Of a stretch of DNA of 64,000 bases, positions 3,379 to 30,119 are shown in pieces. The notes beneath the pieces are model-generated. The model worked only from the letters and a program-made list of their open reading frames with translations. It did no database searches and was not told the origin of the DNA. Location: positions 1 to 64,000 of the IMG/VR virus record IMGVR_UViG_3300026430_000073. One strand, given 5' to 3'. Source of the DNA: an uncultured virus (IMG/VR IMGVR_UViG_3300026430_000073) (taxonomy: Duplodnaviria; Heunggongvirae; Uroviricota; Caudoviricetes). The translations under genes were made by a program, and so were the position numbers. How positions within the stretch are numbered: the stretch's first letter is position 1; each line of letters opens with the position of its first letter.

Positions 3379-3975
3379 GTGGCTACCAAACGAGTTGCCG
3401 TCATCGGCTCGAGGGAAACCCCAGACAATGTATGCCTGCTCGCTAAGAGGTTCACAAACATCCTCGTAGAGCTAGGCTATGCCATTTATTCAGGAGGCTG
3501 TCCTAAAGGGATGGACTACGCAGCGCTAAAGGGCGCTTACGGCCACAAAGCTTCCGATAAGTCAAAGAACCGCATCTATCTCGCATGGGATGGAATGGCT
3601 GATCTCCATCATGATCCAGCTAACGGTTTTTACGACGCTACTAAGTTTGAGAACTACGACATAGCAAAGATCATTGCGGAGCTAGCGCGCGGTAGTTGGC
3701 ACGGCCTCTATGAGAAGGGGATCATGCTGCATTCCAGGAACCCGTACCAGGTCCTAGGAGACGATCTTTGCAGCAACGTGGACTTTGTGCTCACCTGGGC
3801 TATCCCGTCCGGTAAACAAGGTCGGGTGAAAGGCGGTACGGCGACTGCCGTGCGGATTGCCGTAGAGCATTTCATCCCGGTGTACAACCTCTATTACGAA
3901 GATGTATTTAACCGAGTCGATCACTTCGTCAGCTCGGTACTAATGCAAAGGGCGGTAGACAATGCTAAACGGTAA
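3379..3975 (+). CDS. SLOG/DprA-like nucleotide-binding protein
   Basis: VAVIGSRETP, SGGCPKGMD, RNPYQVLG, GGTATAV motifs. Confidence 0.8.
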   Translation: MATKRVAVIGSRETPDNVCLLAKRFTNILVELGYAIYSGGCPKGMDYAALKGAYGHKASDKSKNRIYLAWDGMADLHHDPANGFYDATKFENYDIAKIIAELARGSWHGLYEKGIMLHSRNPYQVLGDDLCSNVDFVLTWAIPSGKQGRVKGGTATAVRIAVEHFIPVYNLYYEDVFNRVDHFVSSVLMQRAVDNAKR

Positions 3976-26163: not shown

Positions 26164-26472
26164 ATGACCCGAGAAACCATGGACTTCCGTCAACGTATCG
26201 AGAACGTCATCAAAGACGTGGCCGCAGAGAATAACCTTCCGTTCACTGAGGTAGGTCTGGCCGAACTTACCGAGCTCATGCAGCCTAAGGTTCATGAGAT
26301 CATCTGGGTGCTGCTCGGTCTGGATCCTGAAGATGTCGAGGTGAAGATCGCTATCACCGCATCTCCTGTAGAGCGGGCAACGCATACCTGGAAGACCGAC
26401 ATCAACATCAAGGCCGGTACTCCTCGTCCTGGCTGTAAAGGTTGCCGGAGTTGCTCGAAGGGATCTCATTGA
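26164..26472 (+). CDS. Hypothetical protein with C-terminal CxxCxxC
   Basis: ORF ending GCKGCRSCSKGSH. Confidence 0.65.
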   Translation: MTRETMDFRQRIENVIKDVAAENNLPFTEVGLAELTELMQPKVHEIIWVLLGLDPEDVEVKIAITASPVERATHTWKTDINIKAGTPRPGCKGCRSCSKGSH

Positions 26473-26518
26473 TTTCCGTACATTTTTACGGAACGTGTAG
26501 ATAAGATGTAAGAAAGAT

Positions 26519-26594
26519 AGTGCCGTAGCTCAGCTGGTAGAGCGCACCCCTGATAAGGGTGAGGTCGGTGGTTCAATCCCACTCGGTACTACCA
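26519..26594 (+). tRNA. tRNA-Ile(GAU)
   Basis: AGTGCCG/CGGTACT acceptor, CACCC-CTGATAA-GGGTG anticodon arm, encoded CCA. Confidence 0.95.
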
Positions 26595-26603
26595 CTTGCA
26601 TCT

Positions 26604-26687
26604 GGATGGGTTCCCGAGCGGTCAAAGGGAGCGGCCTGTAAAGCCGCCATTAATTTTTCGAAGGTTCGAATCCTTCCCCATCCACCA
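26604..26687 (+). tRNA. tRNA-Tyr(GUA)
   Basis: GGATGGG/CCCATCC acceptor, GCGGC-CTGTAAA-GCCGC, long variable region, CCA. Confidence 0.95.
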
Positions 26688-26692
26688 TTTAC

Positions 26693-26757
26693 GACCCTTG
26701 CCAGGCAGCGTATTACGCAGCGCGCTTAACTAGCCGTAGATCGGCTGGAGGGTCACC
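26693..26757 (+). ncRNA. Short tRNA-like RNA (acceptor-like stem + T-arm-like hairpin, no anticodon arm)
   Basis: GACCCTT/GAGGGTC stem then A-CC; TAGCCG-TAGAT-CGGCTG hairpin directly before the 3' strand. Confidence 0.5.
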
Positions 26758-26763
26758 CTTTGT

Positions 26764-26839
26764 TCCACGATAACTCAGTCGGTAGAGTAGCGGACTGTTA
26801 ATTCGCCTGTCCCTGGTTCGAGTCCAGGTCGTGGAGCCA
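26764..26839 (+). tRNA. tRNA-Asn(GUU)
   Basis: TCCACGA/TCGTGGA acceptor, GCGGA-CTGTTAA-TTCGC, G73, CCA. Confidence 0.95.
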
Positions 26840-26847
26840 TTTTCAAT

Positions 26848-26925
26848 CGGGGTATAGCTTAGCCTGGCCTAAAGCAGCGGCCTTTGACGCCGCGATCATT
26901 GGTTCGAATCCAATTACCCCTGCCA
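26848..26925 (+). tRNA. tRNA-Gln(UUG)
   Basis: CGGGGTA/TACCCCT (1-72 mismatch), GCGGC-CTTTGAC-GCCGC, G73, CCA. Confidence 0.9.
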
Positions 26926-26933
26926 AATCAGAA

Positions 26934-27100
26934 GCTCGGTACTCCTATGCCAAGCCTAAGATCCTAGCCCCGTGCCCTCCCTACCCGAGGCGCTATAGCT
27001 GCACGTAAGGCTTTGTAGTTACATTAGACCCTACGACGACGAGGAGCCAGTCTGTTGGCTTTGAGTTATCAGGGAAGCGCCAGCGCCGCACATGCCGAGC
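26934..27100 (+). ncRNA. Unknown multi-stem structured RNA
   Basis: Nested pairings GCTCGGTA/TGCCGAGC, CTCCT/AGGAG, AAGCCT/AGGCTT, CGTGC/GCACG; no ORF. Confidence 0.55.
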
Positions 27101-27227
27101 ACTGTTCTAGCATGGTCAGACACTAGCTAGTACCGCGCAAACCTGCCTGAAGCGATATGAAGGCACCTTGGCCACTAGGGTAATTAGTGGCAAGACCTGG
27201 GGAATGTCCTCCCCAGGCGCTTATTCT

Positions 27228-27376
27228 AACTCTGTAGCTCATTGGTAGAGCGTCCTCACCTTCCTGAAAAGGATTGCAGGTTCGAGTCCTGCTTGGCCGG
27301 CACTATCGGCCAATGGCGGAATTGGTAGACGCAAACATGAGGAAGGCAGCGGGTTCGATTCCCTGCTAGAGTTACC
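27228..27376 (+). ncRNA. Double-elbow tRNA-like RNA 1 (permuted class-II tRNA body in place of the anticodon loop)
   Basis: Outer acceptor AACTCTG/TAGAGTT with D and T arms; inner variable arm, T arm, TTGGCCG/CGGCCAA acceptor and Leu-type D arm, in permuted order. Confidence 0.85.
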
Positions 27377-27384
27377 TATTCAAT

Positions 27385-27534
27385 AGCACTGTAGCTCAGT
27401 TTGGTAGAGCGTCGTCCCTCCCTTAAGGTCGCCGGTTCGAGTCCGGCATCGCCCGTATGGGTGATTAGCTCAGTTGGTTAGAGCGTAAGGCCAACTTGAC
27501 GAAGGTCACTGGTTCAATTCCAGTCAGTGCTCCC
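27385..27534 (+). ncRNA. Double-elbow tRNA-like RNA 2 (permuted class-I tRNA body in place of the anticodon loop)
   Basis: Outer AGCACTG/CAGTGCT; inner CCTTA/TAAGG stem, GCCGG-TTCGAGT-CCGGC, ATCGCCC-GTAT-GGGTGAT, D arm. Confidence 0.9.
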
Positions 27535-27552
27535 TATTCAGAGAAACTTGTG

Positions 27553-27828
27553 ATGCGCAATAAGCAACTGAAAGAACTCGAGGTTAGTCCAGAACTGGAA
27601 GCCAAGATAATCAGGCTGCTGCACGTCCACGGGGATCTCTACACCACCGACCTCGTTGCGTTCGATAAGGTCGGTAATTTCTTCAGAAAGCAAACCGAAG
27701 AAAGCATCACCGCTATGGGTAAAGAACCTAAGTGGTGGCGCTGGAAAGGTTTTGCCGGTACCGAAATCCTGTACGATGGTTTCTTTGATGACCTCGAACA
27801 GTTCATGATCTCGGAAGGTTTGCTTTAA
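27553..27828 (+). CDS. Hypothetical protein within the RNA cluster
   Basis: Start moved to ATG 27553 because the track's TTG start lies inside RNA 2. Confidence 0.7.
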   Translation: MRNKQLKELEVSPELEAKIIRLLHVHGDLYTTDLVAFDKVGNFFRKQTEESITAMGKEPKWWRWKGFAGTEILYDGFFDDLEQFMISEGLL

Positions 27829-27835
27829 GCTACAT

Positions 27836-27947
27836 GCTTCCTTAACTCAGTTGGTAGAGTGCCGTCTTCGAGCCTCCTGGCCCCTTAAATGGGGCAGGCT
27901 CACCATACCTGGCGGAAGTCCGAAGTTCGATTCTTCGAGGAAGCCCC
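27836..27947 (+). ncRNA. tRNA-scaffold RNA 3 (hairpin in place of the anticodon loop)
   Basis: GCTTCCT/AGGAAGC acceptor, D arm, CCGTC/GGCGG stem, CGAAG-TTCGATT-CTTCG T arm; ends C-CC-TATT. Confidence 0.85.
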
Positions 27948-27953
27948 TATTCT

Positions 27954-28040
27954 CGTTCCTTAGCTCAGCTGGTTAGAGCGTCGGCCCCTTAGCTAAAAGA
28001 CACGCCGAAGGTCCGTGGTTCAAATCCACGAGGAACGCCC
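27954..28040 (+). ncRNA. tRNA-scaffold RNA 4 (18-nt loop in place of the anticodon loop)
   Basis: CGTTCCT/AGGAACG, TCGGC/GCCGA stem, CGTGG-TTCAAAT-CCACG; ends C-CC-TATT. Confidence 0.85.
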
Positions 28041-28070
28041 TATTCATCCAACCACCCGCAGAGATCTTTC

Positions 28071-28796
28071 ATGACTCAGAACTATCTGGTGAACAAGAAC
28101 GTTACTGTCCTCGCCTGGTCGTCTCAATCCGGCGAAGATGGTAAGCCTGGCTACAACGTCAAAGACGAAGCCGGCAACGTAACCTGGCAATCGGAAGAGC
28201 AGTTCCTGAAAGATCACTTGCCGCTCGGTCACATCGACAGCCGCCCGGCGCATGTCCAGCGCATGATTATCGAGCAAGCGCAACTGACCGCGCGTCACAA
28301 AGGTCTGTGCTCGTTCCTCTACAACGTGGGTCAGGGCGCCAAGCCTGAAGGTCTTTCCGATCTCGATGTAGACATGATGATGCAGCAAGGCGCGTTCATG
28401 GACAAGTACTCCACTGTCCTGCGTCGTCGCATTGGCCGCGCTACCGAGCGTCGCCTCGAAGCCAAGAACCTGCCGTTGGTCGATGGTAAGTTCAACGTGT
28501 TCGGCTTCGGCGATCCCAGCGTGTTGGATCTGACCGACAGCGTCGGCGCTATCCGCTTCAACAACGTCCGCACGGCCGATGGTATCAAGCTGTCCCATGA
28601 CCTCTCTGCTATCAAGCAGATCGAAGGTCAGCGTACTCAGAACTACACCCTCAGCATCCCTGGTGCTGAAGACATCTACCTGAAGGTAGATCCTGAGCGC
28701 GCCTTGCTTTCCATCACCGTGCCGTCCAGCATCAAGACCGAGCTGTTCTTCGACCTCGAGGTTGTTCTCGAGAACCCGAACTACCGCTGCGCGTAA
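28071..28796 (+). CDS. Phage protein with 'GY.V....G...W' N-terminal domain and crAss001_48-like helical domain
   Basis: GYNVKDEAGNVTWQSEEQF; HVQRMIIEQAQL..R...L..F...Q...M..Y..VL.RRI. Confidence 0.55.
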   Translation: MTQNYLVNKNVTVLAWSSQSGEDGKPGYNVKDEAGNVTWQSEEQFLKDHLPLGHIDSRPAHVQRMIIEQAQLTARHKGLCSFLYNVGQGAKPEGLSDLDVDMMMQQGAFMDKYSTVLRRRIGRATERRLEAKNLPLVDGKFNVFGFGDPSVLDLTDSVGAIRFNNVRTADGIKLSHDLSAIKQIEGQRTQNYTLSIPGAEDIYLKVDPERALLSITVPSSIKTELFFDLEVVLENPNYRCA

Positions 28797-28803
28797 GTTT
28801 TAT

Positions 28804-28929
28804 CTCCGCCTAGCTCAGATGGTAGAGCGCACTCTTTCGGTTCGATTCCGAACATGCCCATCCCTTCGGGGTTCGGCGTGGATCAGGTACATGAGTGAGG
28901 TCCGTGTCTCGAAAACACGGGTGGAGACC
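28804..28929 (+). ncRNA. tRNA-scaffold RNA 5 (degenerate double-elbow)
   Basis: CTCCGCC/GGTGGAG, D arm, CACTC/GAGTG; insert contains TTCGG-TTCGATT-CCGAA and CATGCC/GGCGTG capped by a UUCG hairpin; ends A-CC-TATT. Confidence 0.8.
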
Positions 28930-28933
28930 TATT

Positions 28934-29083
28934 TTCCAACGTGGTATCGCTAAAGTGTCGCAATCGTCCAAAACGCTACATCAGGACATCGCCCAGCAAT
29001 GGGGAAAATTTAGGTACGACCCGAAATCCTAACTGCGACCGCTCAACAATACAATAGGCGATACACTGGGTATGTTGGAGACC
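28934..29083 (+). ncRNA. Unknown structured RNA with tRNA-like 3' end
   Basis: TTCCAACGT/ATGTTGGAG, GTATCGC/GCGATAC, GTCGCA/TGCGAC stems; ends A-CC-TATT. Confidence 0.6.
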
Positions 29084-29100
29084 TATTAGGAGAGAGTGCA

Positions 29101-29304
29101 ATGCTTGAGTCGTATGAAGAAGGAGTGGATTACAAGTCTCCTAGCGGACTGCGATTCAAAGTCCTGTATAAGGCGCAACATGGGCAAGATTGCTCTTGGC
29201 CGATGGTGGTCTACACAAATGTGGAGCCTACCCATGATGCACCGGCAGGGAAGATCTGGACCATTGCTGAGTCCATCTTCATGCGCACCTTCTCCGATTT
29301 CTAA
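29101..29304 (+). CDS. DUF1653-like small beta-barrel protein
   Basis: Y...SG..FKVL..A.H......MVVY...IW......F...F pattern; AGGAG RBS. Confidence 0.55.
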   Translation: MLESYEEGVDYKSPSGLRFKVLYKAQHGQDCSWPMVVYTNVEPTHDAPAGKIWTIAESIFMRTFSDF

Positions 29305-29322
29305 ACAATACAGGATACCGGC

Positions 29323-29511
29323 ATGAGCGAAGCTACCAAGTTCGAACCAGGTGATGTCGTCTACCTCAAAAGCGGTTCTCCGGAACTGACCGTCGAGCGT
29401 TATGATGAGGAAGACGAGCACACGGTGGTTCGTTGGATGGCCGATGGTGAAGTTCGCGCTACCGGCTTCCCGGCGGCTTGCCTGACTAAGGAAAAGCCCA
29501 AGTTCCTGTAA
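29323..29511 (+). CDS. YodC/DUF2158 family protein
   Basis: FEPGDVVYLKSGSPELTV...V.W...G......FP...L. Confidence 0.8.
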   Translation: MSEATKFEPGDVVYLKSGSPELTVERYDEEDEHTVVRWMADGEVRATGFPAACLTKEKPKFL

Positions 29512-29518
29512 CGATCAT

Positions 29519-29649
29519 CCCTGGCTAGCGGCTGGCGCTACTCCGGCGAACTGCGATACGATATACTGGAAAGGGTTTCATGCCTGACGCACTTTCCCGT
29601 GTCCGTCGTTTATTAGTTGGTGGGGAGTTCAAATCTCCCGCTCGGGGCC
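29519..29649 (+). ncRNA. tRNA-like RNA with canonical T arm and long internal region
   Basis: GGGAG-TTCAAAT-CTCCC, imperfect acceptor CCCTGGC/GCTCGGG, G-CC-T end, followed by a terminator. Confidence 0.55.
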
Positions 29650-29653
29650 TAAA

Positions 29654-29687
29654 CATACTGCCGGGATAGATCCCGGCTTTATGCCGT
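29654..29687. terminator. Terminator closing the RNA cluster
   Basis: GCCGGGA-TAGA-TCCCGGC-TTTATGCCG. Confidence 0.75.
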
Positions 29688-29738
29688 AAACTTTCATTTA
29701 TGCTGGCAAATGTATGTCAGAGAATACCGGAGCTTAGC

Positions 29739-30119
29739 ATGGCCTTTTGGACAGCGCAGATTAGCCAGTGGAGACTGGTGCAGGATAGGGGAATCATCCT
29801 GGCCGATACCACGGTAAAGTCAGCTGTGGAGTACGAGTTTCTCGCACCCACTTGGACGATGGTCATGAACCACAAGGGCGAGCTCATAACCGACGAGATG
29901 TATACCGAACAATACCTAGCGCTATTACGCGATCGGTACGGTAGTTGGCGTCGGTCTTTCTACGATCTGCTCGAATTGGGACGAGACAGTGAGGTGGCCA
30001 TTGCGTGCTATTGTAGTCCCGGTAAGTTCTGTCACCGACACTTAAGCATAAACGTTTTACGGAAGATCGCTGAGAAGGCGAACTTACCGTTTGAATATAA
30101 AGGCGAGATTACAAGATGA
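29739..30119 (+). CDS. DUF488-like protein
   Basis: LAPTW, Y...Y...L, ACYC....FCHRH motifs; GGAG RBS before ATG 29739. Confidence 0.7.
   Translation: MAFWTAQISQWRLVQDRGIILADTTVKSAVEYEFLAPTWTMVMNHKGELITDEMYTEQYLALLRDRYGSWRRSFYDLLELGRDSEVAIACYCSPGKFCHRHLSINVLRKIAEKANLPFEYKGEITR

Follow-up and report, generated by a model that had tools for sequence, protein, structure and literature searches.

The subject of this work is a group of tRNA-shaped elements in a stretch of 64,000 nucleotides (nt) from an uncultured virus (positions 1 to 64,000 of the IMG/VR record IMGVR_UViG_3300026430_000073), hereafter called the window. Seven elements, E1 to E7, lie on its plus strand between positions 27228 and 29649, downstream of four canonical transfer RNA (tRNA) genes. 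Five of them, E1 to E5, are full tRNA chassis lacking an anticodon loop. We give an even chance to the reading that a phiKZ-like jumbo phage uses E1 to E7 as working 'tRNA-chassis' RNAs that do not decode, would be processed via the tRNA pathway and are likely to be tRNA mimics.

The first description of these elements came from a reading of the letters without database searches (the sequence-only reading), which had proposed a family of anticodon-less RNAs built on a tRNA scaffold. Direct reading and a coordinate table placed all seven elements where it had put them, six of them ending in a stem followed by one base, CC and TATT. Its account of the parts was also borne out: E1 to E5 keep the acceptor, D arm and T arm, E6 is without D or T arm, and the anticodon position carries a permuted tRNA body (E1, E2), a hairpin (E3), an 18-nt loop (E4) or a T arm plus stem (E5). 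A cloverleaf with a 7-base-pair (bp) acceptor, a D arm, a 5-bp anticodon stem, a T arm and a 7-nt T loop is formed by E2 to E5, and by E1 if a single bulged T in its outer T stem is allowed for; it is absent from E6 and partly present in E7. When the chassis is counted as 21 pairs (7 acceptor, 4 D, 5 anticodon stem and 5 T), all 21 are present in each of 14 sequences, namely E2 to E5 of the window, their orthologues and the additional element E0 of two relatives. The energy of the fold constrained to the cloverleaf lies within 2.7 kcal/mol of the free minimum free energy (MFE), at zero cost for E3, where the free MFE fold is the cloverleaf plus cargo, and for E5, where it is the constrained fold itself.

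The position of the anticodon loop is filled by 18–81 nt of structured cargo. A readable 7-nt anticodon loop was found in none of E1 to E7, and ARAGORN calls E4 alone, as tRNA-??? with a 2-nt 'anticodon'. It is extremely improbable that the elements are true decoders after a splicing or editing step, or else decaying pseudo-tRNAs. What speaks for such a reading is that the Rfam tRNA model (RF00005) scores E4 (54.7 bits) and E3 (48.0 bits) above its gathering score with the cargo as an insert, although it does so only by skipping 17 nt and 41 nt, respectively. Intron and transfer-messenger RNA (tmRNA) families are absent from the 18 Rfam matches at E up to 10, and ARAGORN reports no tmRNA. The lack of an intron family match argues against decoders, as does the fact that the cargoes are covarying structures, and by eye no excision could be found that leaves a 7-nt loop with U33.

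The elements differ in what they carry. E1 (27228–27376, ending A-CC-TATT) consists of an outer chassis that shares a 6-bp anticodon stem with an inner permuted body, and all 41 pairs of this nested fold form. The inner body opens with the variable hairpin, continues with the T arm and a 7-bp acceptor whose cap is a 7-nt loop, and finishes with the D arm; from its D arm and variable-arm hairpin we judge it, by our own reading and with no tool, to be of class II and tRNA-Leu-like. E2 (27385–27534, ending C-CC-TATT) is a tRNA nested in a tRNA with 42 of 42 pairs, in which the outer anticodon stem leads to an internal loop (4 nt / 7 nt) and then to a second 5-bp anticodon stem, beyond which the inner body has its variable loop and T arm, then a 7-bp acceptor with a 4-nt closing loop, and finally the D arm. 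E3 (27836–27947, ending C-CC-TATT) has a 44-nt cargo made up of a bulged hairpin, a conserved 6-nt loop and a single-stranded 3′ junction. In E4 (27954–28040, ending C-CC-TATT) the 18-nt 'anticodon loop' forms a 3-bp mini-hairpin, and in E5 (28804–28929, ending A-CC-TATT) the cargo is an inner T-arm hairpin followed by an interrupted stem with a tetraloop cap. E6 (28934–29083, ending A-CC-TATT) is a rod-like RNA with an acceptor-like terminal stem only (fold z score −2.21), and E7 (29519–29649, ending G-CC-TAAA) combines a bulged acceptor-like stem, a D-like hairpin, a cargo of ~75 nt and a canonical T arm.

The comparison with close relatives was anchored on a 241-aa protein encoded within the array, which used as a query found six IMG/VR loci. 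Three of these are 100% identical in the anchor and belong to the same phage; two, L006 and L007, are 76% identical, and the last, L008, is 67% identical. The arrays of L006 and L007 match exactly in two of three stretches compared. L006 and L008 carry the same array plus tRNA-Asp, tRNA-His and the extra cargo element E0, and are without tRNA-Gln, E6 and two small open reading frames (ORFs). E6 is a lineage-specific insertion of 154 nt, and it is flanked by a 12-nt direct repeat of the 3′ end of E5 (28922–28933 and 29076–29087).

Erosion into pseudo-tRNAs in relatives, the outcome named in advance as fatal to the sequence-only reading, was looked for and is not what these loci contain. Over the 84 chassis pairs of E2 to E5, the comparison of the window with L006 gave 67 unchanged, 2 changed on one side, 15 changed on both sides and 0 broken, and that with L008 gave 66, 4, 14 and 0. 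The compensatory pairs against L006 include four in E3 and seven in E5. The nested fold of E2 forms all 42 pairs in the window, L006 and L008, and E1 retains 39 of 41 in both orthologues, the variable hairpin being lost; the mini-stem of E4 keeps its pairing in L006 and L008 via a two-sided change. For E2, a covariance model named R1 was built, and the window, L006, L008 and the homologue of the cultured phage RTH11 were aligned to it. On this alignment 166 of 168 cells of the nested fold are paired (98.8%), and 21 of the 42 pairs show two-sided changes. This covariation was reached by 0 of 500 shuffles, and sliding the partners by 1–3 columns lowered pairing to 30–42%. Decay is excluded by the 0/84 broken pairs, and the array elements are maintained structures and no decaying pseudogenes. 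The tRNA-scaffold reading is sound to this extent, that the elements are non-decoding tRNA-shaped RNAs under structural selection. Because the folds are preserved in relatives, we take the elements to be working RNAs.

Some parts are conserved beyond their pairing. E7 is identical at 132 of 132 positions in the three lineages, while the flanking ORFs are 79–82% identical at the DNA level; the cargo of E5 is identical at 53 of 59 positions (0.90) against 49 of 69 (0.71) for its chassis; and the inner body of E1 is identical in the three lineages. 'Cargo conserved, chassis free' was considered as a general rule and rejected, being true of E5, E7 and the inner body of E1 and false for E2 to E4.

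Related elements occur in cultured phages. A DNA search of 50,697 phage records matched E2 to Xanthomonas phage RTH11, E1 to Burkholderia phage FLC9, and, in 16 records, the first half of E2 to Salmonella phages of the SPFM type and phages close to them; all these matches are unannotated or lie beneath a hypothetical ORF. The RTH11 homologue of E2 scores 135.8 bits on R1, a model that is unspecific below ~100 bits (ordinary or tandem tRNAs reach 40–75 bits), so that score and length were judged jointly; E1 scores 78.1 bits. The E1 type is present in FLC9, and E3-like elements are present in the Ralstonia phages RP12 and FLC1-1B as well as in FLC9. The elements of FLC9, RP12 and FLC1-1B have neither an ARAGORN call nor an annotation. 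Of 12 cultured phiKZ-like genomes examined, four (RTH11, FLC9, FLC1-1B and RP12) contain chassis RNAs with cargo, and SPFM4 has a 72-nt match to the tRNA model with no ARAGORN call. R1 run with stricter filters, at which weak matches are lost, found none in phiKZ, Goslar, Eowyn, Noxifer, LucasX and DT01. Erwinia phage Deimos-Minion, in whose genome the tRNA-model search found no tRNA, holds a free-standing permuted module (T arm, capped acceptor, D arm) in an unannotated gap (L051 1501–1571; KU886225.1 168724–168794); the module reaches 47.2 bits against the inner portion of R1. Five distant loci reached through a DUF488-like neighbour gene showed no tRNA and no Rfam match, and R1 found nothing in the four large IMG/VR records of four of these loci.

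Several further observations concern the arrays of cultured phages. In FLC9 (L016 2995–3453), the 3′ acceptor strand of each of the three cargo elements has, by eye, 9 nt, pairs 5 and 6 of the acceptor being separated by two surplus bases; another register gives two G-U pairs instead, and the irregularity recurs in all three. Non-coding stretches of ~0.4–1 kb stand beside the tRNA arrays of FLC9 (L016 4240–4730), SPFM4 (L017 1960–3000) and DT01 (L037 1340–1750), and in RP12 and FLC1-1B (L038, L039) a long non-coding stretch follows the last tRNA-like element on its 3′ side, with a short motif near the start common to both. These long stretches may be large structured RNAs. A DHH-like protein of the window was compared with the annotated 3′-5′ exoribonuclease near the RTH11 array, and the two are unrelated.

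The 3′ ends of the elements set them apart from the canonical tRNAs. The CC ends at 27376, 27534, 27947, 28040, 28929 and 29083, each time after a 7-nt 3′ acceptor strand and one base and before TATT; in E7 it ends at 29649, where the E7 copies of L006 and L008 read G-CCA. As the sequence-only reading had stated, the four tRNAs at the head of the same array (Ile, Tyr, Asn and Gln) all encode CCA in the table of tails, and three elements (E2, E3 and E4) have a discriminator C without G-1, their base at −1 being T. The motif CCTATT is at chance level in the window overall (17 copies against 15.6 +/- 3.5 expected); its placement is not, since six of the 11 plus-strand copies fall inside 1,713 bases (placement simulation, P ~3e-5). 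The window, L006 and L008 together hold 18 copies of E0 to E6, and every one has T at position 76, where all nine canonical tRNAs have A; over the same three loci the base at −1 is T in 21 of 21 scaffold copies and CC is present in all. The trailers of this clade are TATT, TATC (E1 of L008) and TAGC (E0). Outside it, the RTH11 elements end in CCA, three elements of FLC9 in ACA, CCA and ACA, that of RP12 in UCA and that of FLC1-1B in CCA. The N-CC-TATT signature proposed for the family therefore survives in narrower form: the T at position 76 of E0 to E6 is clade-wide, with variation in the trailer, and homologous types elsewhere carry CCA, ACA or UCA, so that CC-TATT is best regarded as a mark of this clade and not of the whole family. 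A separate observation is that the tRNA-His gene of RTH11 (L015 2664–2739) is followed by CCT, not CCA, according to the scan output, which suggests that a CC-U end could mature into a working tRNA end. A phage CCA-adding enzyme was found neither in the 74-kb source record nor in five of five complete cultured genomes, and any A76 would therefore be host-made.

How such RNAs might be made follows from the enzymology of tRNA maturation. Bacterial RNase P recognises a substrate by its acceptor-T minihelix, with a preference for U at −1 and base pairing to C74 and C75; A/U-rich trailers are cut by RNase E, and CC brings RNase T to a halt. By these rules the chassis elements would keep all the determinants of RNase P (a 7-bp acceptor on a T arm, T at −1, and C74 C75), and they appear to drop both features needed for decoding and charging, namely the 7-nt anticodon loop and the encoded A76. 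Because the former are kept and the latter dropped, we read the elements as RNAs that the tRNA pathway would cut out and stabilise. The 5′ ends would be made by host RNase P; on the 3′ side, cleavage of the A/U-rich trailer by an RNase E-type enzyme and subsequent exonuclease trimming would leave an end at CC or CCU; and the host CCA-adding enzyme may then supply the A. The tRNA body would serve folding, excision and nuclease resistance, and the module in the anticodon position would be the working part, a second capped tRNA body in E1 and E2 and a capped acceptor-T minihelix in E5. The elements would bind, not serve, a tRNA-recognising factor through elbow or minihelix surfaces, and action as mimics of this sort is the most likely mode in our model. 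As to the factor, a component of the conserved RNA-processing or translation machinery is a tentative candidate, towards which we lean because the same types persist in phages of three host genera. A tRNA-targeting defence enzyme seems rather doubtful as the partner, and what keeps it in play is that E0 and E6 come and go between relatives and that the elements sit among tRNA genes.

The defence alternative, which the sequence-only reading had put forward, holds that bodies without anticodon and A76 are decoys, which would soak up anticodon nucleases or CCA-modifying toxins while being themselves uncleavable and unmodifiable. We consider this somewhat unlikely as the explanation of the array. 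The elements do lie in a phage tRNA array, both usual target sites are missing from them, and there is turnover between close relatives, E0 and tRNA-His being confined to L006 and L008 and E6 to the window. A review interprets phage tRNA arrays as a counter to tRNA-cleaving defences (PMC7824862). On the other hand, the same types recur in phages of Xanthomonas, Burkholderia and Ralstonia, which would be expected of a conserved partner more than of defences that are patchy and differ by strain, and the loops of the cargo hairpins have 6 nt and are no copies of a 7-nt anticodon loop.

A number of points weigh against reading the array as working tRNA-chassis RNAs. The alignment that shows the E2 covariation was fitted to the model R1 and holds four sequences only. 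The conservation comes from three close-orthologue lineages, in which the arrays of L006/L007 and L008 are much alike, so that the independent events are few. In E2 to E4 it is the chassis that is more conserved than the cargo (0.84–0.93 vs 0.72–0.82), and the fold energy of E7 is unremarkable (z −1.08). The maturation route set out above is a prediction from the general rules for RNase P, RNase E and RNase T. A last point concerns RNA data. Soil 'metatranscriptome' libraries contain the stretch in 22 runs, and in runs X4, X9, X13 and X19 window positions 26400–29800 were found in phage contigs of up to 242 kb with a word depth up to ~7,300. The phage, or phage DNA, is very abundant in the soil samples of these four runs; the contigs, of flat depth, showed no legible starts, ends or added CCA, and carry-over of DNA may be involved.

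The permuted modules of E1 and E2 bring the array close to a known Y RNA of bacteria and phages that mimics tRNA, YrlA. The inner body of E2 matches positions 23–85 of 114 of the Rfam YrlA model (RF02553) with 37.7 bits (E 6.6e-6), short of the gathering score of 69, and the relatives score 28.5–30.5 bits. The YrlA order of T arm, capped acceptor and D arm is found in the inner bodies of both E1 and E2. YrlA is described as a permuted tRNA-like module; in its Mycobacterium smegmatis form the capped acceptor has 7 bp, and this RNA is a substrate of RNase P to which CCA is added in vivo (PMC4201824). As in YrlA, the inner module is entered via the position of the anticodon stem, and its capped acceptor has 7 bp as in the M. 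smegmatis form. Unlike YrlA, which is mounted on a Ro60-binding helix, the module of E1 and E2 sits in the anticodon position of a second, open tRNA. That these inner bodies are tethers, docking a host-encoded Ro60-type ring to an exonuclease as YrlA does, is very unlikely. The score of the E2 module, its weaker counterparts in relatives and the agreement in arm order and capped acceptor with the design described in that source speak for it. They are offset by the score lying below the gathering score and by the fact that tandem tRNAs also score on the YrlA model. A TROVE/Ro60 gene was not found in the 74-kb record (~30% of the genome) or in three of three complete cultured genomes (RTH11, FLC9 and SPFM4). 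The Ro60-helix motif is not conserved either: by eye, the window shows it in E2 and E4 but solely on the wrong strand, and it is lost in L006.

Within the favoured reading, that of tRNA mimics, a bolder form can be imagined for E1 and E2. They could be 'two-headed' tRNAs, two complete L-shaped bodies joined end to end via their anticodon stems and acting as a bivalent mimic, a model that we hold to be improbable. If RNase P opened the capped 7-bp inner acceptor as in M. smegmatis YrlA, the product would be a particle in two pieces, in which acceptor ends and elbows are each present twice. Nucleus-forming phages might use it to occupy a pair of tRNA-binding sites together, bridging or jamming them, be it on the ribosome, RNase P or a defence enzyme, and the conserved CC-U end would prevent charging. 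If true, this would be an RNA effector class not described for any virus.

The array lies in a 74,030-base IMG/VR virus record that CheckV estimates to be ~30% complete. The window encodes a phiKZ-type internal head protein, an S80 prohead protease and a 1,139-aa helicase that is 36–42% identical to helicases of phiKZ-like jumbo phages, among them pPa_SNUABM_DT01, LucasX, RAY, Noxifer, RTH11, FLC9, RP12 and Goslar. The same stretch is also present on a 248-kb metagenome contig with 99.84% identity. E1 to E7, the tRNAs and a few small ORFs form a single block on one strand. The tRNA genes (Ile-GAU, Tyr-GUA, Asn-GUU and Gln-UUG; 26519–26925, plus strand) were called by ARAGORN and score 54.7–66.5 bits on the Rfam tRNA model. 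All the ORFs are likewise on the plus strand. A 92-aa ORF with no family match lies between E2 and E3 (27550–27828) and is missing from L006 and L008; the 241-aa ORF, between E4 and E5 (28071–28796), has a crAss001_48-related domain (Pfam PF21825, 1.9e-12); and two small ORFs between E6 and E7 (29101–29511) encode 67 aa and 62 aa, the second with DUF2158 and missing from L006 and L008. Directly 3′ of E7 there is a G+C-rich hairpin (29660–29677, plus strand); a terminator-like site was called here on the minus strand only, the plus-strand tail having four T, and the hairpin might tentatively be taken for the end of the transcription unit.

This layout bears on another explanation, in which the bodies are punctuation, that is, RNase P/Z cut signals and stabilising ends for the interleaved small mRNAs, with the cargo incidental. 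The elements do bracket the ORFs at 27550–27828, 28071–28796 and 29101–29511 on one strand, and no sigma-70-like promoter was found within the array block. Yet E1-E2 and E3-E4 stand in tandem without an ORF between them, two of the four ORFs are missing in relatives while the elements remain, and plain tRNAs would suffice for the task. Incidental cargo also agrees poorly with the covariation of the inner stems of E2 (helices 4–7) and with the E5 and E7 cargoes, which are frozen in sequence. We regard punctuation as unlikely.

Three places in the tRNA part of the block deserve mention. Between tRNA-Gln and E1 lie ~300 nt of non-coding sequence (26926–27227), of which the 3′ 200 nt are 87% identical to L006 and which closes with a terminator-like hairpin (27196–27217) followed by the trailer TTATTC. 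It has no Rfam match and a fold z score of −0.78, so that fold energy alone gives no support; a further RNA gene of the array may lie here. The Tyr and Asn tRNA genes are separated by a 76-nt spacer (26688–26763), which can fold back to close on itself and resembles, by eye, the stretch after tRNA-Asn in L006 (~3830–3905); it is possibly a small structured RNA. Lastly, in an otherwise identical strain the first tRNA (L003 3449–3524) differs from that of the window (26519–26594) at two positions, and one change turns the anticodon GAT into GTT, ARAGORN calling Asn instead of Ile. This is an anticodon-switch polymorphism inside one phage population.

The array offers comparative handles on an old question. 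The tRNA-like stable RNAs of phages T4 and T5 have stayed unexplained for decades, and here the same design is diversified into seven types in a phiKZ-like phage, in which one can see which parts are frozen, which only keep their pairing and which ends are kept. The orthologues in cultured Xanthomonas, Burkholderia and Ralstonia phages provide systems for testing. Genome annotation misses such genes: in all cultured records examined they either have no annotation or lie under hypothetical ORFs. Should they be decoys or regulators of tRNA-handling enzymes, an RNA arm would be added to phage takeover or counter-defence.

The stability of the tRNA-like RNAs of T5 and T4 rests on old experiments. 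The T5 record (NC_005859) annotates RNA1 (144 nt) and RNA2 (125 nt), within the tRNA block, as 'tRNA-like stable RNA with unknown functions', together with RNA3 and five other stable RNAs. In T4, RNAC and RNAD come from the tRNA region and are described as of unknown function (PMC3014915). Like these RNAs, the window elements are encoded inside a phage tRNA block on the same strand. Like T5 RNA1 and RNA2, which were folded here, they keep an acceptor stem and a T arm while a long structured insert replaces the anticodon arm, and RNA2 also has an inner T-arm-like hairpin and a near-CCA tail. No homology to RNA1 or RNA2 was found when the T5 region was searched with R1, which returned canonical tRNAs and a 15-nt, T-arm-sized fragment in RNA2 (6.8 bits). 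The folds of RNA1 and RNA2 show no complete nested second tRNA body, in contrast to the window; the array described here brings together as many as seven types that share a uniform CC-U end, and it belongs to phiKZ-like phages. The likeness to the T5 RNAs is one of design, not of demonstrated descent. Full-text literature searches turned up no account of nested or cargo-bearing tRNAs from jumbo phages.

The other comparison is with a laboratory design, the engineered tRNA scaffold of Ponchon and Dardel, in which a cargo replaces the anticodon arm and the chassis reportedly gives processing and stability. The window elements are by contrast natural, diversified and conserved, and some of them carry another tRNA body. 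In conclusion, RNAs of this kind are already known from the tRNA clusters of T4 and T5, and the new variants are the nested tRNA-in-tRNA form and the uniform CC-U ends.

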